From NCBI GenBank assembly GCA_048938295.1, contig JBHLMI010000002.1, forward strand, positions 1 to 32,000: DNA of 32,000 nucleotides, written 5' to 3'. The translations under genes were made by a program, and so were the position numbers. Positions 21,646 through 29,865 of this stretch are shown here, piece after piece; the first letter of the stretch is position 1, and each line of letters begins with the position of its first letter. This DNA is from Promethearchaeota archaeon. GTDB lineage: Archaea; Asgardarchaeota; Hermodarchaeia; Hermodarchaeales; Hermodarchaeaceae. Under the pieces are notes generated by a model. That model saw only the letters and a list, made by a program, of their open reading frames with translations. It did no database searches and was not told the origin of the DNA.

Positions 21646-24591
21646 CTATTTCTTTATTTTAAACTGGAGAGTACGAATCTGAAAGGGAGCAATACTCATT
21701 TCAACATGAGATGTATTTGCGACTGCTAGTGGAGTATCGCTAGTTGGTTCTTCATTAAGGTTGACGGGAGTAACCTTTGTAACCTCCAAGTGGGTTTGGA
21801 TTCTTGCCATTCCTGTAGCTCCGCTAATTTCGTATACGCGGAGAATGGTTGAATCGGTGTTTTCGGATTTCTTCAAACAGCTAAAGGTGCAGTGGGGATT
21901 ATCGATTGAAAGAAAGCTTTGATCAGGTGGAAGGTGGCCATTATTTGTAATGGAAAGTTGGATGGCTCTCATTGGAGTAACAAAGAGTTGGGTTTGTTGT
22001 AGTGTTTGCTTATTTCTCCATGACTTGGGATGAGGGAATATAGAATAGTGCATGGTATGATGCCCTAAGCATTGTGCCTTGGGCGTTGCGAGTTCTGGAC
22101 CTGCGTGTCCACGGCGGGTCGTTAAGTCAGCCCGGGAAAGCGATCCAACTGATCGAAGGAGTGTCAAGGCAATAGTACGTTTTTCGTCATCAATCACCTC
22201 GTATTCAGGGAGCCCTCGCGTGGCGATAAGCAAACCTGCCTTGCCATCATTTACATCTACGAAGCTTTGGAGGGCATGTGTGGTTGCGGAGTCTTCGAAC
22301 CAACCAAGGGGTTTACCCGGAATATTTGGTGCTTTGAGAATTGAGGTGAGGTAGTAGTCTATCATCATGGGGTAGAGCTGAGCTTCCCAGGTTTGAGAAG
22401 CAGCTTTAATTGGTCGTTCTGTGACATGGAACGGAGTATCGGCACATGCGGTGGTAGTGTTTAGGTCTGTTGGGAAAAGGACCCGGAGTCGGTGGTCCTT
22501 TGCCGTATTGGTTAATATGGTTTGAATATCGACTCGTGGAGAATAGGCAGATACTGTGATTAGACTTTGAATGGGTATTGTCACTCTCTGGGAGCTTCGG
22601 CGTTGGCGATTAGTGAGGATTTCTTTTGGAACTCTAATCCTTGTTGAAATCAAGAGTGAAGCTGTGATTGGCCCCGCTTCAACTACGCTTATCCTTGTGT
22701 TCGGTACGTCTTGCGTGGTGATACAGGAATCCTGAGCGGGAGGACAGTAGTTGTATTCGTCACCGATATCACCTGTGTCTTCCAAAACGTGAAGATTGGT
22801 GTACTCTTTGTGTGTGGGTTTATGGTAGAGAGTGACTGAACCGTTTCGGGTAGATATGTATAGTCGTATGAACGTGTTTTCAATAGAATACACTTTATCC
22901 TCTTGTTTAACTGAGAGGAGGGGAGTTGACGGGGTTAAATCATTAGAGGCTCGTTGGGCTAAATAGAAGGTGGCGTGTCCGAGTCCAGGAATGTCCCGCG
23001 CAGGAAAAGTGACCAACAGATAGTCTGTAAGATTTGGGACGTATGTTTCACCTGCATAGGGTTCAGGAAGGGTGTGAACAGCAATTGACCTATTTATGGC
23101 TGGATCGAGAGCTGTTGCTTTCTGACATTGGAAGGGAACAGCTTCTCCAACTGAATTATAGAGGACGAAGGGATTGGCACCGTCTACGCGGTTAGGTAGG
23201 TGAAGAAGAATGCGGACAATATCTGTTGCGTTCCACGAATGTGGGTTGAACACCCGTAATGCAACAAGCAGTTCATGTGGTAGCGTTGAAGGAGAAGTGG
23301 AAGTGGTTTGCTGGTTAACATACGAAATGGCTTCGCTGAGCAACTGATTTCCGATTTGTTGAACTCCTGCGAACCGTCGGTCCATATCAGCGTGAGTTGC
23401 GTCGACACTGCAACCGCAGATAGAATCATGGGGGTGGTTCTGGAGGAGAAGTTTCCAAGCGTATTGGAGAGGAACCGTAGGGTAGGGAGCTCCAAGCCAC
23501 CAAGCGATTGTGCTAAAGGGTTCAACCCACCGTTCGAGCAGTTGTTGGCAGATGAAATTTTTTTGTTTAAGATAGAGACGAGAGGAAAATACACCGGGAA
23601 GAACGGGGACATACTTGCTGGCGTGTTGTTCTCCTTCAATAATCGGCAATTCTGTGAGGATCACTTCGTTTCGGACGATATCGATATAGTCCTGTAGCGT
23701 ACCGTGATGGAATGTGACTCCTTGTAATTCTTTGAGGAAGTCAGTAAACAATTGGTCAATGAATGGACTGAGTTCATCAAGACCAGTTACTTCTTTGTCT
23801 ATAGGACTTTTCCCGAACTCACTAAGTAATTGTGTAACTTGTTTTCCTGCCAAAATATCCTGTGATTGGAGACGTTGATTCAATGCCTGAATGAGTGGGG
23901 GAAGATGGGGTTGAGGGGGAAGGTGGTCACTTCCGTTCATGAGAAGAGCAGCGGATGTGGTTCCTCTTAGAGATAGAACATTTAGTGGCATAAGGAGTTG
24001 AGCCAATGCTGAATCCACAGAATCTGGGAGATTTGCTGCAGTTGAATAACTCGTCCGTAAATGAATAAGGAGCACTTCTGAGCCATCAGGTGCTCGCCAA
24101 CGAAGTTCTGTTGGCAGAGTTCTTCCGTGATCTTCTAATCCGCGCCACCAAATACTAGCCGTAATGTCGAAACCGTTGAGAATCTGGGGAAGTTGAGCGA
24201 TGTGTCCAAAAGGATCGGGGACATATCCTATGGACATCACATTTCCAAATTGACTTGCGGTTTGACTTCCATAGAGTAAATTACGGATCAGTGATTCTCC
24301 GCTGACTAAAAATTCGTCAGCGAGTACATACCATGGACCAATTTGTATGCGATTTTGACTAATGAGTTGCTGCAATCGATTGCGGTTTTCTGGTCGGAGC
24401 GCAAGATAGTCCTCGAGGATAATGGTCTGGCCATCTAAGTTGAAGTAGCGATATTTCGGATTGTTTTCCATGAGTTCGATGAGCTGATCTAAAGTCTTAA
24501 CCAGTAGCCACCGGAAATCTTCAAAGGGAAGATACCATTCGCGATCCCAATGCGTATGACTGACCAGGATCACTTTTTGAAGCTTTGGCAT
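21646..24591 (-). CDS. GH38 alpha-mannosidase (MngB-like)
   Basis: SHTHWDREWY, FNLDGQT, GPWYVLADEFLVSGESLIRNL, GYVPDPFGH (nucleophile), NGSDH, HDSICGCS and a C-terminal beta-sandwich. ATG 24591 (track uses GTG 24600). Confidence 0.93.
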   Translation of the reverse strand: MPKLQKVILVSHTHWDREWYLPFEDFRWLLVKTLDQLIELMENNPKYRYFNLDGQTIILEDYLALRPENRNRLQQLISQNRIQIGPWYVLADEFLVSGESLIRNLLYGSQTASQFGNVMSIGYVPDPFGHIAQLPQILNGFDITASIWWRGLEDHGRTLPTELRWRAPDGSEVLLIHLRTSYSTAANLPDSVDSALAQLLMPLNVLSLRGTTSAALLMNGSDHLPPQPHLPPLIQALNQRLQSQDILAGKQVTQLLSEFGKSPIDKEVTGLDELSPFIDQLFTDFLKELQGVTFHHGTLQDYIDIVRNEVILTELPIIEGEQHASKYVPVLPGVFSSRLYLKQKNFICQQLLERWVEPFSTIAWWLGAPYPTVPLQYAWKLLLQNHPHDSICGCSVDATHADMDRRFAGVQQIGNQLLSEAISYVNQQTTSTSPSTLPHELLVALRVFNPHSWNATDIVRILLHLPNRVDGANPFVLYNSVGEAVPFQCQKATALDPAINRSIAVHTLPEPYAGETYVPNLTDYLLVTFPARDIPGLGHATFYLAQRASNDLTPSTPLLSVKQEDKVYSIENTFIRLYISTRNGSVTLYHKPTHKEYTNLHVLEDTGDIGDEYNYCPPAQDSCITTQDVPNTRISVVEAGPITASLLISTRIRVPKEILTNRQRRSSQRVTIPIQSLITVSAYSPRVDIQTILTNTAKDHRLRVLFPTDLNTTTACADTPFHVTERPIKAASQTWEAQLYPMMIDYYLTSILKAPNIPGKPLGWFEDSATTHALQSFVDVNDGKAGLLIATRGLPEYEVIDDEKRTIALTLLRSVGSLSRADLTTRRGHAGPELATPKAQCLGHHTMHYSIFPHPKSWRNKQTLQQTQLFVTPMRAIQLSITNNGHLPPDQSFLSIDNPHCTFSCLKKSENTDSTILRVYEISGATGMARIQTHLEVTKVTPVNLNEEPTSDTPLAVANTSHVEMSIAPFQIRTLQFKIKK

Positions 24592-24817
24592 CTTAAACAC
24601 CGAACGAGGTACTTAAGAGGATAGGTGTGTGGTTCGTTGACTTATACTCTTGTGTCGTTCGCAACATGAAAGCGGTAATTGTTTTCATCCAAAGTCTTAG
24701 TGTTTGAAATTTCACGTCAAAGGGCATGGTTCGGGCTTTTGGCAAGCTGTTCACTTATCGCCGACCCTCTCTGGCTTTTAGTATGCAAGTGTTCAATCTT
24801 TCTTCTGAGGAGGCGTA

Positions 24818-25166: not shown

Positions 25167-26519
25167 TTACTTCTTCAGGTATCGTTGGTAGACCCATCCA
25201 CCAATCGCTAGAATGACTACGACGACGATGCCGATGATAATGTATTCGATGGGAATTGGTTCTGGGGGAGGAGGTGCCGTGAGCGTTGTGCCAGCATTCC
25301 AATCCCAGTTGAAAATCTGGGTGAAGTAGTTAGCGACACCTGAGTGAGTGATGATAACTCCAGCTTCTCGGTTTTCGTGCGTGGATTCGTAACTCCAGTT
25401 GATGCTGGAGACGAGGACCTTTTGTCCGTCAACGATGACGCCTTTGTTGTGGGTCCATTCAAAATAGTCCTGATTGCTGAACCGAACATCCACACCATTA
25501 GCCATTAACAGATTGGCCACTTCTTGCATCCCGGAACTACGGTTGTCGAGAATGACCTGACAGTCTACCCCCCGTGCAGCGGCTGCAATAATGGCATCAT
25601 TGAATTGATTTGGAGCTCCATCCCAATCGAGCTTCGAATACATCTGCTGTACGCGCACGGTCGAGGTGGCAGAGTCGATGAGGGCCTTGATCGTTGGAAT
25701 GTCGTTGTCCGGTGAGAGGACGCATTGGATGCTCATGGAGCCAGAAAATGTCTGGCTGGTGAATGGTGCAGGATAGGAACCTGTTGAGATGTTATCACTG
25801 AATTCTTCTTCATCAGCGATATTAGGAACGTAAGGTTCTACATTATCAAGGGTTAAGTCATGCATGAAGGTGTCAGAGAAGTAGTCGATAACATCAGGTT
25901 GATTAATCACTACCCCCCATTCCCGGTTTCCAGCGCTACTGGCAGGTGGAACGCCGGTTTTTGCCCAATTCGCACTTTCCACAACGAGTGCCTCGTGATC
26001 AAAGATCATGAATTTGGCATGGGTGAATTCAAGGTAGGTGTCCTCGGAGAAGTAGAGTTGCAAATTGGAGCCAAAGGCGGCATTTTGTGAAAGGTTGTAG
26101 AATGCGCCTTTTGTGAGTGAACGCTCAGCTATTGAAGCCCATTTCCAGGAAACGATGATGGTGATTTCCATGGTGCCATTTCGGGCAAGGGCGTCATGGA
26201 TTTCTTTGATGAGGAACCAGTTGCTAAGTGCATACACCATGATTTGCATTTCGTTCTCGGTGTTTTGTAAAAGGTCTGTAAGGACGCCAAAACTTGAGTC
26301 AGGCGAAGAGTAGCAGGTAACAGACGCTGATCCCGTATAGGTCGACGCAGGTTTGTCTAAAGCGGGAGGTTGGGCAGTGATGTTCAACGGTGTTTCGGAG
26401 GCAGGTGACAAAAAGGGCAGAACCATGACCCCGAGAAAGAGGAGTAATATTAATTGTGAAAAGATTGTTCGCCGCATTGGCATGTCTCCCATGTATCGTT
26501 GGGTACTATTCATCCTCAT
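25167..26519 (-). CDS. Secreted, membrane-anchored phospholipase D-superfamily protein (two HKD motifs)
   Basis: THAKFMIFD...ESANW...NREWG and THNKGVIVD...SSINW...NREAG; N-terminal signal peptide, Pro linker and C-terminal TM. Several possible ATGs between 26519 and 26477. Confidence 0.88.
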   Translation of the reverse strand: MRMNSTQRYMGDMPMRRTIFSQLILLLFLGVMVLPFLSPASETPLNITAQPPALDKPASTYTGSASVTCYSSPDSSFGVLTDLLQNTENEMQIMVYALSNWFLIKEIHDALARNGTMEITIIVSWKWASIAERSLTKGAFYNLSQNAAFGSNLQLYFSEDTYLEFTHAKFMIFDHEALVVESANWAKTGVPPASSAGNREWGVVINQPDVIDYFSDTFMHDLTLDNVEPYVPNIADEEEFSDNISTGSYPAPFTSQTFSGSMSIQCVLSPDNDIPTIKALIDSATSTVRVQQMYSKLDWDGAPNQFNDAIIAAAARGVDCQVILDNRSSGMQEVANLLMANGVDVRFSNQDYFEWTHNKGVIVDGQKVLVSSINWSYESTHENREAGVIITHSGVANYFTQIFNWDWNAGTTLTAPPPPEPIPIEYIIIGIVVVVILAIGGWVYQRYLKK

Positions 26520-26687
26520 CTAGTATTTTGCTATTTAGGCTTGTGCTTTTTTCTAGAGCCGACTCAAATGCAGAGAACGCGAATAGGGTTTTATTCTGGA
26601 CCCCTTGAATTTCTGATCTTTTACACGATATTTTATTAAGAAGCCATTTGCTCAGTGCTCTCATCATTACTCTGAAAGGTGTGCCTG

Positions 26688-27170
26688 ATGCACAAAGAGC
26701 TTAGTTATGAGTTTCCAACGATGCCACCAGCTCAAAGGGCATTCAAATGCATATGTGACCGACTTGGGATTGTATCTGAAGAAGCCGATATGGGAGGTGG
26801 GCTGAGTGCACGAACGGATGATCGATCCTTCTCAGCCCAATTGATGGCAAGTACCACAGACCGTGGAACAATGAAAGTCGAAGTGCATATTCGTGTATCC
26901 TCTGATGAACAAATGACTGCGGTAACGGCTTGTTTTGGTGAACCTCAACAAGAACGTGATATTGCGCCCAGTCAGAAAACTTTCGCTAAGGTCGTAGTTG
27001 AAACGGAATTTACAGGTGACACAAACTGGTTTGTAAATGAGGTGTGCGAGAAACTGGATATTGCTCCAGATCAATTTGGGAACTATCGAGCCATGGTCTT
27101 GTTAACTGCAAAAATGAAAGGTGCTCCTGGGTTCATTCAGGAAGCTGCAAAGAAGCTAAAGGAGATGTAA
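26688..27170 (+). CDS. Hypothetical protein (160 aa)
   Basis: TATA-like TTTTATTAA near 26632, SD AGGTG upstream of ATG 26688; no recognised family. Confidence 0.7.
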   Translation: MHKELSYEFPTMPPAQRAFKCICDRLGIVSEEADMGGGLSARTDDRSFSAQLMASTTDRGTMKVEVHIRVSSDEQMTAVTACFGEPQQERDIAPSQKTFAKVVVETEFTGDTNWFVNEVCEKLDIAPDQFGNYRAMVLLTAKMKGAPGFIQEAAKKLKEM

Positions 27171-27197: not shown

Positions 27198-27365
27198 TCA
27201 TCCGAATCGAAGTTCATGTTTATCTGATGTATGCCCGCAGACGGGGCATTCGTATCCTTTTTTCTTCTTAACGCACGATCTGTGGAATGTCGAGTTGCAG
27301 TTTGAGCATTTGATTGAGGTTTGGACTATCTTTCCGCATGCTTGGCATACATCATCTGAACTCAA
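27198..27365 (-). CDS. Stand-alone C4-H-C3 cross-brace zinc-finger microprotein (PHD-finger / Nse1-type RING-like), 55 aa; absent from the ORF track
   Basis: TTG 27365 to TGA 27198-27200 translates MSSDDVCQACGKIVQTSIKCSNCNSTFHRSCVKKKKGYECPVCGHTSDKHELRFG, pattern C-x2-C-x9-C-x2-C-x4-H-x2-C-x8-C-x2-C. Confidence 0.85.
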   Translation of the reverse strand: MSSDDVCQACGKIVQTSIKCSNCNSTFHRSCVKKKKGYECPVCGHTSDKHELRFG

Positions 27366-27405
27366 AATATCACAATCCTATTAGTAATTTACCTACGAAC
27401 TTCAT

Positions 27406-27412
27406 GGTTAAA
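27406..27412 (-). promoter_or_regulatory. Candidate BRE/TATA for the zinc-finger microprotein
   Basis: GAGAAATG-TTTAACC about 40 nt upstream of TTG 27365; SD-like GGATTGTGA just upstream of the start. Confidence 0.45.
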
Positions 27413-27457
27413 CATTTCTCTTGTTGTGGGGGAGGGACTACTTTGGCTGGGAGAAGC

Positions 27458-28384
27458 TTAAACTCCTTTTTCCTTTATATATGGAACCCCGATACCCTTG
27501 GGTGGAATGGATCGTCGAATAATTCCGAGGGCAACAATAACGCTGATGTATGGAATCATTTGGATGAATTGCACATACTGACTGAGGAACTGGAATTCAG
27601 GAAGAATGAGGATTCCAGCTTCAACCGCATTTAGGAATCCAAAGAACATACCTGAGAGGAAGACCCCGATGGGCGTCCAGTTACCAAAGATCAAAGCTGC
27701 TAGTGCGATGAAGCCACGGCCACCAGTCATGACTTCTACGAATCGACCCAGTGTTCCGATGGATAGTTGGGCACCGCCTACAGCCGCAAGAATACCACTG
27801 ATCGCCACGCCTATCATTCGAGTAGATTCCACATTCACCCCGGCAGTATCAAGCGTGCTGGGATCCTCACCCGAAGCACGTAACCGTAAGCCAAAAGATG
27901 ACCGATATATGATGTAATGGCTTATGGGCAGCATGAGAAACATGAAGATCATTATAGGACCGATGTAGCCGAACCAAGGGAGAGACAGACCTGGTAGACG
28001 TGGAACGTTGGGTGAAACCCCATGAACGCCCCAAACCGCGAAAAGTCCAAAAGTCGTTAAGCCTGTTGCAAAGAGAATTATTCCTGCACCACTCACAATT
28101 TGATTACCTTTTAGTCGCACACAGATTATTCCATGAATTAATCCTAATAAGGCACCTGATAGAATGGCTCCAAGTAAACCAAACCAAGGATTATTAGTGA
28201 ACCAAGTGACAGCAACAGCCGTAAACGCACCCATGAGCATCATTCCTTCTAATCCGATGTTCACTACACCTGATCGTTCAGAGAACATTCCTCCTAACGC
28301 AGCGAGAACTAGGGGAGTTGAGAATTTGATAATGGAGTTGATGAACCATGCAATTATTAGAGGATTCAGGAATGAATTTTGCAT
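27458..28384 (-). CDS. Nucleoside/sugar ABC transporter permease subunit 2 (CUT2 family)
   Basis: PLVLAALGGMFSERSGVVNIGLEGMML, GLRLRASGEDP, GRGFIALAALIFGNW. Start revised to ATG 28384 (SD GGAGGTG, TGATG overlap). Confidence 0.92.
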   Translation of the reverse strand: MQNSFLNPLIIAWFINSIIKFSTPLVLAALGGMFSERSGVVNIGLEGMMLMGAFTAVAVTWFTNNPWFGLLGAILSGALLGLIHGIICVRLKGNQIVSGAGIILFATGLTTFGLFAVWGVHGVSPNVPRLPGLSLPWFGYIGPIMIFMFLMLPISHYIIYRSSFGLRLRASGEDPSTLDTAGVNVESTRMIGVAISGILAAVGGAQLSIGTLGRFVEVMTGGRGFIALAALIFGNWTPIGVFLSGMFFGFLNAVEAGILILPEFQFLSQYVQFIQMIPYISVIVALGIIRRSIPPKGIGVPYIKEKGV

Positions 28385-29865
28385 CAGAAGACACCTCCAA
28401 TCACAACGGCCTTTCTTACTATCAGGTAATATGCAGGTAACACGAGAATGAGCCCTACAACCCCTAAAACAAGGAGAGGTATTGTTAGGGTGTTGACTTG
28501 ATACACAAGAATTAGTGCGGCCAATATGATCCACCCTATTGATGTTAGACAGGCAACAAGAAGCCCCCAAGTTTTTCTCATGAGGATACCTACGAAAGCA
28601 AAAAGGGCTAGCAGTCCCAGGGTTACCATTTGAGCCATGAAAATGACATCAGCTTGCAGATACGCAAAGCCAATGAATAGCCCAATGACTGAACCAACTA
28701 CAGCGATTACTGCTGTAAGAAAGATGGGTAGAGCCTTCTTCGGTTCCTCAATTATCCACAGGGCATATTCATTCCCTTTTGAAGCCAGCCATTGGATGAT
28801 TTTTGGAGCTGCAACAAACAATACGACAAGACCCTGAATTATAACTACCATTTCTCGAGGAACACCAGCTACGGCATCCATTACGACAGCACCTGCCTTC
28901 AAGAAGCCAAAGAAGAGGGCAGCTAAAATTACCCCAAAGGGATTGTTGAGCCCCAACACAGCAACTGTAATCCCATCAAATCCTAAACCTGGAGACCAAC
29001 CATTAATGAAACGGTGGTAGTACCCAAGAATCTCACCGGCACCTGCTAAACCGGCAAGTGCGCCACTGAGTGTAAGAGCAAGCACCATCATGTACTTTGA
29101 ATTAATTCCAGCCGTTTCAGCTGCTTCAAGATTCTTACCCACTGCCCGAACTTCATATCCACGCACAGTGTAGTTTAAGAAAAACCAGACGACTAAAGCA
29201 CTAATGATTGCGATTAGAAAGCCAGCATGAAGAAAAGGTGATCCAAGTAGGCTGGGAAGGATAGCGGTGGGTTGAATAGGCGAAGTCTGGGGATAGGGAG
29301 TGCCTGGTTCTTTCAATGGAAATGTGACCAACCATTCAGTGAATAAGATGGCAATATAGGTCATCATCATTGTGGTAACCACTTCATGCGCACCACGATA
29401 GGCTTTGAGGATTCCAGGAATAAACGCCCAAGCAGCACCAGCGATTGCAGCAGCAGCTAGGCACACTAGGGGATGAATAAAGGAAGGCAATAACACATAG
29501 ACGCCAATTATCGTGGCTACCATAGATCCCATATAGAGTTGTCCTTCAGCACCGATATTGAAGAGTCCTGCTTTGAATGCAAGGGCTACGGAAAGACCAG
29601 TTAGGAGGAGAGGAGTTGCATACCATAACACCTGATCTGGATTCCGAAAAGCCCCTTGAATCAAAACAGTATACGCAAAAACTGGGTCATATTCTGTGGC
29701 GATCATGATCAGTGCTGCTACGAGTAAGGCTAGAATAATAGAACCGCCTGCCCAGAGCAGTTCCTTCATCGCACTTAGTAATGACCTTTCGAAGGGCCTG
29801 AGTTCCTGACTTCCATTAAGCACTTTCTCGATGTCCGCATCCTTTGGTCCATGAACTTCGTTCAT
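28384..29865 (-). CDS. Nucleoside/sugar ABC transporter permease subunit 1 with extra C-terminal TM segment
   Basis: GLFNIGAEGQ, HEVVTTMM, GYEVRAVGKN, GFDGITVAVLG, FFGFLKAG. Confidence 0.92.
   Translation of the reverse strand: MNEVHGPKDADIEKVLNGSQELRPFERSLLSAMKELLWAGGSIILALLVAALIMIATEYDPVFAYTVLIQGAFRNPDQVLWYATPLLLTGLSVALAFKAGLFNIGAEGQLYMGSMVATIIGVYVLLPSFIHPLVCLAAAAIAGAAWAFIPGILKAYRGAHEVVTTMMMTYIAILFTEWLVTFPLKEPGTPYPQTSPIQPTAILPSLLGSPFLHAGFLIAIISALVVWFFLNYTVRGYEVRAVGKNLEAAETAGINSKYMMVLALTLSGALAGLAGAGEILGYYHRFINGWSPGLGFDGITVAVLGLNNPFGVILAALFFGFLKAGAVVMDAVAGVPREMVVIIQGLVVLFVAAPKIIQWLASKGNEYALWIIEEPKKALPIFLTAVIAVVGSVIGLFIGFAYLQADVIFMAQMVTLGLLALFAFVGILMRKTWGLLVACLTSIGWIILAALILVYQVNTLTIPLLVLGVVGLILVLPAYYLIVRKAVVIGGVF

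Follow-up and report, generated by a model that had tools for sequence, protein, structure and literature searches.

A conserved, unannotated 55-residue microprotein of one Asgard archaeal family and its probable place in the RING/PHD fold class

The window considered here is a 32,000-nucleotide (nt) stretch of DNA (positions 1 to 32,000 of contig JBHLMI010000002.1, assembly GCA_048938295.1) from an archaeon of the Asgard family Hermodarchaeaceae. On its minus strand, between positions 27198 and 27365, it carries a real protein-coding gene that annotation has missed, that is under purifying selection and that is restricted to one lineage. The product is a microprotein of only 55 residues, in which eight potential zinc ligands follow one another in C4HC3 order. 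Judging from its models, its fold very probably belongs to the cross-brace RING/PHD class, and within that class it appears to be an offshoot of the archaeal small RINGs, trimmed and particular to its lineage, its C4HC3 likeness to PHD fingers being secondary. As for what it does, we favour, with belief and doubt in about equal measure, a non-catalytic module whose invariant lysine patch would bind a polyanionic or acidic partner. The following sections set out the evidence for the gene, for its kinship to the RING proteins encoded in the same genome, and for and against the various functions that such a small domain might have.

A small gene missed by annotation

The open reading frame (ORF) is made of 55 codons followed by a TGA stop (27198-27200), and its TTG codon (27363-27365) is the sole possible start, with an in-frame TAG lying 12 nt upstream. 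A previous reading of this DNA from its letters (the sequence-only reading) had proposed here an unlisted ORF of this length with eight ligands in a particular spacing, and the sequence is exactly so: C7-x2-C10-x9-C20-x2-C23-x4-H28-x2-C31-x8-C40-x2-C43. The protein also displays the FH..C signature, a tyrosine (Tyr38) two residues before C40, a pair of aspartates preceding C7, and a run of four lysines (residues 33-36), while its first and last knuckles are of the CxxCG and CPxCG types (CQACG and CPVCG). Across all six reading frames of the 2.52-Mb genome, a strict regular expression for the motif has a single match, at this very ORF, and it has none in three shuffled genomes, from which it follows that the motif is no chance event.

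The hidden, stand-alone gene that had been suggested is borne out by its orthologs, by selection and by the alternation of its start codon. Six-frame searches recovered full-length, stop-free orthologs in 13 of the 14 genomes of the same genus (62-85% identity) and in all four of the sister genus (~47% identity), with TTG and ATG alternating at one and the same start position. Variable columns are found at 53 of 56 third codon positions compared to 15 of 56 second positions, and the ratio of nonsynonymous to synonymous substitution rates (dN/dS) is ~0.08 where synonymous sites are unsaturated. The C4HC3 order and the spacing C-x2-C-x4-H-x2-C from the third to the sixth ligand do not vary in 18 or more orthologs. 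In the 18-sequence ortholog set, the eight ligands, V14, T16, K19, F27, K35, K36 and G55 are invariant, and the ligands, F27, K35 and G55 remain so when the two most divergent members, P0005 and P0006, are added. Both of these come from sediment metagenomes, and their downstream synteny is that of the source locus. The net charge is between +2 and +8 in every member of the family.

A profile search of 400 Asgard genomes for unannotated orthologs restricted the stand-alone gene to the source's own family, where 17 of the 18 genomes have it. When 1.84 billion representative proteins were searched exhaustively with the profile, four true members of 56-71 residues came out, all remaining matches being C2H2 arrays and multidomain RING/PHD proteins near noise. 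A word-indexed search of 5.8 billion proteins returned a single match, P0002, an 88-residue protein from a 1,053-bp contig in ENA, in which the first ~43 residues of the family are joined to a complete rubredoxin at a YKCTVCG knuckle. Probably an assembly chimera created through this shared knuckle, it was not used as a family member. The exact sequence of the microprotein is missing from ~15 billion predicted proteins, which fits a gene left uncalled in the source genome; ATG-start orthologs in other metagenome-assembled genomes (MAGs) carry no annotation other than “hypothetical protein.” No Rfam family matched between 26400 and 28000, and a non-coding RNA at this locus was therefore rejected.

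Upstream of the gene, the alignment of 14 same-genus orthologs contains only two conserved stretches, and the TATA box (TTTAAC) and Shine-Dalgarno candidates put forward earlier fall inside them. The first is a Shine-Dalgarno-like GTGAT (27369-27373, minus strand), located 3 nt upstream of the start and invariant in the 14 orthologs while its flanks vary. In the sister genus the corresponding bases are AGGAG. GTGAT would pair with the 3′-end of 16S rRNA. The second is a putative promoter block, AGAGAAATGTTTAAC (27407-27421, minus strand), 42-56 nt upstream of the start, which comprises a run resembling the B recognition element (BRE) and the TATA box at 27407-27412. Its 15-nt consensus is AGAGAAA[C/T]GTTTAA[T/C]. 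The spacing of this block would give a leader of about 18 nt containing the Shine-Dalgarno sequence.

Predicted fold and domain families

The AlphaFold2 model of the microprotein, computed from an 18-sequence alignment, has a mean predicted local distance difference test score (pLDDT) of 76, and an independent model of P0006, the most divergent member, reaches 73. Compared with the Protein Data Bank (PDB) by Foldseek, the first model finds RING1B/PCGF5, Nse1, a TFIIH subunit (chain 4 of yeast preinitiation complex entries), TRIM2 and the AL3 PHD at the top of the list, with template modelling (TM) scores of 0.5-0.65, root-mean-square deviations (rmsd) of ~2.5 Å and probabilities of 0.9-0.99. 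Among Swiss-Prot models the matches are SLX1, RNF138, Nse1 and TRIM RINGs, and the AFDB clusters recovered are small proteins named “RING-type,” “PHD-type” or “Phorbol-ester/DAG-type.” VIA-align superposes the model on the N-terminal domain of spliceosome chains ranking alongside the Prp19 U-box (Z 6.4, 53 residues at 2.2 Å), and SLX1 and RING1B reach Z values of ~5. A scan of 48,161 PDB representatives independent of Foldseek produced a top 50 made almost entirely of RING, U-box and ZZ domains (Z 3.8-5.6). The P0006 model matches the Nse1 RING, the BHC80 PHD and TRIM RINGs. Overall, RING, U-box and Nse1 matches superpose with an rmsd of 2.0-2.8 Å over 46-53 residues, and the modest absolute scores are as expected for a domain of only ~50 residues. 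The cross-brace relative of RING and PHD domains announced by the sequence-only reading is thus supported by two models, which superpose on RING, U-box, Nse1, SLX1 and PHD domains.

Sequence profiles point the same way. Searched against PDB sequences, the family profile covers the full domain and keeps its ligands aligned with those of the Hrd1 RING-H2 (E 3e-4) and of the PHF21A/BHC80 PHD (E 1e-3). The only Pfam model to reach its threshold is zf-RING-like (Nse1, PF08746), matched over its full length (1-43/43) with 26.9 bits for a cut-off of 26.6; the margin is small, and the source protein has the best score of the 18 members, the others lying lower. The proposed kinship to the Nse1 RING-like spacing is to this extent upheld. 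Below their thresholds come C1_1 (PF00130; 23.3 bits, cut-off 26.5), C1_2 (PF03107; 23.3, cut-off 26), PHD (PF00628; 21.1, cut-off 24, covering residues 7-36 only, with a best E-value of 1.4e-4 over the 18 members), Prok-RING_1 (20.0, cut-off 29.1), zf-RING_2 (PF13639; 18.6, cut-off 27.3) and the double zinc ribbon DZR (PF12773; 16.8, cut-off 27.3). On these profile scores, Pfam does not decide between RING and PHD.

The RING variants of Nse1 and SLX1, recurrent top structural matches for both models, share the C4HC3 order and the x2/x4/x2 spacing with the microprotein. They are however C-terminal domains of larger winged-helix or GIY-YIG proteins working in the SMC5/6 and SLX1-SLX4 complexes, whereas here the domain is the whole 55-residue protein, with a stop 12 nt upstream of its start. 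No Nse-type partner gene was found among the neighbours scanned. Nse1 and SLX1 RING variants serve largely in protein docking, more than as strong E3s.

Kinship to the resident small RING proteins

The source genome encodes ubiquitin, E1 and E2, whose presence the sequence-only reading had raised as a point to look for. They belong to an ESCRT-ubiquitin cluster typical of Asgard archaea. On contig C53 (1-8000; L063), the endosomal sorting complex (ESCRT) genes EAP30 (Vps22/36-like), Vps28 and UEV-Vps23 lie on one strand, and divergent from them runs an operon made of a 108-residue small RING finger protein (srfp; L063:4797-5120), ubiquitin (L063:5127-5369), a UQ_con E2 (L063:5570-6028) and a ThiF-type E1 (L063:6007-7068). 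Three more proteins of this genome, all beyond the window, have a C-terminal RING of the srfp type (C50:78834-78962, C25:20159-20284 and C8:54777-54908). In these three the domain reads C-x2-C-x12-C-x2-C-x4-H-x2-[H/E]...[W/Y]...C-P-x-C with an arginine within two residues after it, and is preceded by long hydrophobic stretches that are likely membrane helices; one of them also has a large, probably extracellular repeat region.

The core common to the four resident RINGs is C-x2-C-x11/12-C-x2-C-x4-H-x2-H...W...C-P-x-C, followed by the arginine within two residues. Aligned with them by hhalign, the microprotein family profile gives a probability of 77% and an E-value of 2e-5, with all ligands in register. 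Compared to these domains, the microprotein has a cysteine instead of a histidine as ligand 6 and deletions in both loops. The sequence-only reading had itself named a match to archaeal small RINGs as what would set aside a PHD interpretation, and this alignment provides one. It had also taken the spacing C-x2-C-x4-H-x2-C from ligand 3 onwards as characteristic of PHD fingers, which does not hold: the four resident RINGs, the E3 of the ubiquitin operon included, share C-x2-C-x4-H-x2-[C/H], so that this spacing is not specific to PHD and does not discriminate between the families. The same unusual middle spacing was remarked upon in the study of the Caldiarchaeum srfp (PMC5654768).

The srfps encoded with ubiquitin in Aigarchaeota and Asgard archaea (Hennell James et al., 2017; PMC5654768) are, like the microprotein, small archaeal proteins with a single eight-ligand domain, a C-x2-C-x4-H-x2-[H/C] middle and a CPxC last knuckle; the cross-brace of the srfps is, for the microprotein, a predicted one. 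The microprotein differs in having no N-terminal extension, a cysteine as ligand 6 and shorter loops, in being encoded outside the ubiquitin operon, and in being confined to one Asgard family.

An E2-docking surface that has been lost?

Could the microprotein then be a second minimal RING E3, or an E2 cofactor, docking the UQ_con E2 by the usual RING surface? Archaeal small RING proteins are proven E3s, and in the Caldiarchaeum srfp the mutation I30Q, at the hydrophobic residue following ligand 1, abolished ubiquitylation while W58A, at the helix Trp, and R69A, at the Arg behind the last Cys, impaired it (PMC5654768). RING and U-box E3 domains prevail in every structural search, the source genome has the ubiquitin, E2 and E1 that such an enzyme would need, most members carry a proline after ligand 7 (CPVC), and the sister genus has a valine two residues after ligand 1. 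The E2-related residues speak against it. The srfp of the source operon keeps all three (C-x-V-C, Trp and CPIC-R), so the operon already has a canonical srfp of its own. In the microprotein family, the position two residues after ligand 1 is variable (members of the genus have Ala9, the sister genus and P0005 a valine, and P0006 a lysine), the invariant Lys35 stands at or near the position of the E2-contacting Trp of RING-H2 and archaeal srfp domains (ligand 6 +4), which hhalign places in a deletion, and the linchpin Arg position after C43 is Gly44. The gene, on contig C8, has no linkage to the Ub-E2-E1-srfp cluster on C53, zf-RING_2 stays at 18.6 bits for a cut-off of 27.3, and the microprotein occurs in a single Asgard family whereas the ubiquitin system is widespread. 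The E2 binding or E3 role previously entertained is weakened by the replacement of the srfp Trp and linchpin Arg; from these residues an E3 activity is possible but disfavoured, and we consider this alternative unlikely.

Zinc sites

By analogy with the folds on which the models superpose, C7, C10, H28 and C31 most likely form one zinc site and C20, C23, C40 and C43 the other, in an interleaved arrangement, and each chain would hold two zinc ions. A different view is that the protein is built of two zinc ribbons, or rubredoxin-like knuckles, in succession, or else holds a single zinc, in the manner of the haloarchaeal C(P)XCG micro-proteins or of small zinc-ribbon ribosomal or nucleic-acid-binding proteins. 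Its first and last knuckles (CQACG and CPVCG) are of the right types, Pfam reports weak DZR and rubredoxin-type knuckle matches, and archaeal ribosomal chains of ~50-60 residues (9znf_BV, 9fhl_C) appear in the Foldseek lists. Moreover, the Haloferax protein HVO_2753, with four C(P)XCG motifs, binds just one zinc (PMC11241148), so that four motifs need not mean two ions.

Like the microprotein, the haloarchaeal C(P)XCG proteins (HVO_0758, HVO_2753) are archaeal, shorter than 70 residues, often unannotated, made mainly of zinc knuckles, and their partners are mostly unknown (PMC11241148, PMC10716476). They were however predicted from sequentially paired motifs, no sequence relationship to them was detected, and the microprotein has eight ligands including a histidine in a predicted interleaved RING-type fold. 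The ribosomal chains superpose with TM scores of only 0.32-0.42 and an rmsd above 4 Å, to be compared with 0.5-0.65 for RING, U-box and Nse1. The two independent models agree, FH..C accompanies full-length RING-H2 and PHD profile matches with all eight ligands in register, DZR falls below its cut-off (16.8 vs 27.3 bits), and few zinc-ribbon chains figure among the best structural matches. The Foldseek comparison suggested earlier thus gave its best matches among the PHD, RING and Nse1 classes rather than among zinc ribbons, and the uniformity of the lists favours a cross-brace over two ribbons. We judge the ribbon or single-zinc alternative quite unlikely.

The lysine patch and the C-terminal tail

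Two conserved elements outside the ligands deserve attention. The first is the lysine patch K33-K36 (codons at 27258-27269, minus strand), which lies between ligand 6 (C31) and ligand 7 (C40), in the loop joining them. Among the 18 orthologs K35 and K36 never change and K34 is kept in at least 90%, and the basic run is retained in P0005 and P0006. The second is the C-terminal tail E51-L-R-F-G55 (codons at 27201-27215, minus strand), in which conservation is at least 90% at E51 and R53 and the last residue of the protein is the invariant glycine. The pLDDT is below 50 at residues 53-55, and this conserved though poorly modelled end of the chain may serve for docking or form an edge strand.

In the mechanism that we favour, the RING scaffold would be retained, with the invariant patch K33-K36 displayed on the face where a RING E3 docks its E2, the conserved K12 and K19 lying in the loop and strand adjoining it, and no linchpin arginine. 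The microprotein would then act as a zinc-stabilised module, devoid of catalysis, that grips its partner by the lysine patch and possibly by the ELRFG tail. The partner would in the first place be a nucleic acid, with an acidic protein as second candidate and an anionic lipid as third. Three kinds of ligand had been offered by the sequence-only reading, namely a histone tail, an E2, and a nucleic acid or anionic lipid, and the last appears to be the most plausible. Both ligand and binding mode are suggested by conservation, charge and RING topology.

Several observations weigh against this account. The hhalign link to the srfp RINGs stands at only 77% and rests largely on the ligand columns. 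The AlphaFold2 models derive from shallow alignments of 16-18 sequences, and the structural matches are modest (Z below 7, Foldseek E ~0.01-0.1). The cross-brace pairing is read from the folds superposed on and not from coordinates, and AlphaFold, which is known to get zinc occupancy wrong in archaeal micro-proteins (PMC11241148), cannot tell whether predicted Cys4 sites hold zinc, HVO_2753 being a case in point. The microprotein matches no nucleic-acid-binding family, and its genomic context offers no functional hint. Lastly, an index of public runs lists no RNA run for the locus, only DNA runs (sediment, soil and mangrove metagenomes).

The lysine patch could also serve a membrane or anionic-lipid module comparable to C1, FYVE or polybasic PHD domains, at work in Asgard membrane biology. 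C1_1 and C1_2 are among the best Pfam matches of all 18 members, some AFDB cluster matches bear the name “Phorbol-ester/DAG-type,” and the neighbourhood includes a conserved PLD-family gene. But the C1 matches are below threshold, and a C1 domain is laid out as H-x12-C-x2-C...C-x2-C-x4-H-x2-C-x6-7-C whereas the microprotein has only six residues before C7, no N-terminal His ligand, and ends in C-x2-C with no single terminal Cys. It has neither the FYVE basic motif nor hydrophobic loop tips. The PLD-like neighbour carries a signal peptide and an anchor, which makes it extracellular, and the pair that it forms with a 160-residue gene exists, as far as gene size shows, in other Asgard lineages without the microprotein. 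A lipid-binding role is, in our opinion, very unlikely.

A histone reader?

The sequence-only reading had laid emphasis on PHD fingers as readers of histone tails, and the source genome does encode one detectable histone (C1:6632-6868, L062:1474-1710, minus strand, outside the window) with a short N-terminal extension. The protein starts MPREKTTRIIP and, once the methionine is removed, its R2, K4 and T6 coincide with those of eukaryotic H3 (ARTKQTAR). The extension is kept in Hermodarchaeota, and similar ones (MPRERSSR, MPREKAER, MPKEKAER) occur in several other Asgard families. An archaeal PHD-type reader of this extension would be in keeping with the C4HC3 order, with FH..C, with the aromatic residue before ligand 7 (Tyr or Phe in the family), with the mostly acidic residues before ligand 1, and with the presence of BHC80/PHF21A and other PHDs in both sequence and fold match lists. 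The first four of these features are shared with PHD fingers such as that of BHC80/PHF21A (PDB 2puy).

In PHD fingers, the loop between ligands 6 and 7 cages the N-terminus of H3. In the microprotein this loop has 8 residues and an all-Lys core, in place of the long loop of the H3 pocket, and the surface is basic, not acidic. The loop has 7-9 residues with a Lys core in the genus and in P0006, whereas the sister genus and P0005 have 14 residues there; the PHD fingers aligned by the profile-PDB search have insertions of 5-6 residues in this loop relative to the microprotein. The acidic residue claimed before ligand 1 survives in part: positions 2-3 before this cysteine are mostly acidic, but ortholog L013 has a lysine. 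The Pfam PHD model remains under threshold (21.1 bits for 24), no other PHD protein of the source genome scores above it, and the resident RINGs have the same middle spacing. Since the domain is net basic in all members, it is a poor match for a histone tail that is basic too. Finally, at least four other Asgard families keep an N-terminus of the MPREK type yet lack the gene, and the co-occurrence of tail and microprotein was for this reason discarded. A histone-tail reader is accordingly highly improbable. The bolder version of this idea, an archaeal forerunner of PHD fingers, that is a C4HC3 reader derived from an archaeal RING and recognising the MPREKTTR extension, would put tail-reading chromatin biology before eukaryogenesis, and is the least probable of all the readings considered.

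Distant relatives and neighbouring genes

The nearest matches outside the family are RING-like domains within Lokiarchaeial proteins of ~450 residues. A whole-protein search of the source genome for a protein of this type found no match, and the idea of a split gene, in which the microprotein would be a detached domain acting in trans, was dropped for want of such a counterpart. Asgard family f9, with genomes of 3-5 Mb, encodes such RING/PHD-like proteins (L046:1068-2414, L047:1093-2412, L047:1-942 and L052:751-2079). At ~440-450 residues, these combine a conserved N-terminal domain without Pfam match, a central C-x2-C...C-x2-C-x4-H-x2-C domain and, in the full-length proteins, two additional C-terminal CxxC knuckles. 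At one locus two paralogs stand in tandem, the one cut by the edge of the locus having at least 313 residues. In a related protein, L048:1554-2720, Pfam recognises a VWA domain. This layout is reminiscent, as we see it, of the VWA plus zinc-finger build of TFIIH p44/p34.

In the genus, a Bmp-type nucleoside ABC importer lies upstream of the microprotein gene and in the same orientation, yet the latter has its own promoter. A link to this importer was rejected as it is not conserved, the upstream gene of the sister genus being metallophosphoesterase-like. The second ABC permease (27458-28570, minus strand) is listed as an ORF of 370 residues that overlaps the upstream permease gene by ~190 nt; its orthologs have ~306-320 residues, and translation therefore probably begins at an internal codon near 28390.

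Downstream, the family keeps one gene order. A gene for a 160-residue orphan (26679-27170, plus strand), convergent to the microprotein gene, probably starts at ATG 26688 and has no Pfam or PDB match. It is followed by an exported PLD-family protein with two HKD motifs, an N-terminal signal and a C-terminal anchor (25167-26519, minus strand), and then by a GH38 alpha-mannosidase (21646-24600, minus strand). The orphan stands beside the microprotein at every microprotein locus, distant metagenomic members included, but its family is wider, being present in 13 more Asgard genomes from at least eight other families. Its usual neighbour in these is a gene of ~410-460 residues, a resemblance to the PLD-like gene in size only (domain unscanned), and no small Cys-rich ORF lies beside it. 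As the 160-residue family is found elsewhere without the microprotein, their adjacency says little about the latter, and no functional link between the two is claimed.

Significance

The microprotein is a previously unannotated, lineage-restricted form of a fold class already known, that of RING and PHD domains, and its narrow spread, in one family of Hermodarchaeota, limits its broader impact for now. It nonetheless adds to Asgard MAGs a conserved and strongly selected micro-gene, of a kind that gene callers overlook where translation starts at TTG. It also suggests that one His-to-Cys ligand change, together with loop trimming, can give rise to a C4HC3 “PHD-like” signature among the archaeal small RINGs, which calls for caution when eukaryotic chromatin readers are claimed in Asgard archaea from motifs. 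With its 55 residues, it makes a compact target: a RING scaffold whose E2 surface appears to be replaced by a lysine patch. Should it indeed bind nucleic acid or another defined partner, it would be among the smallest natural cross-brace binding modules.

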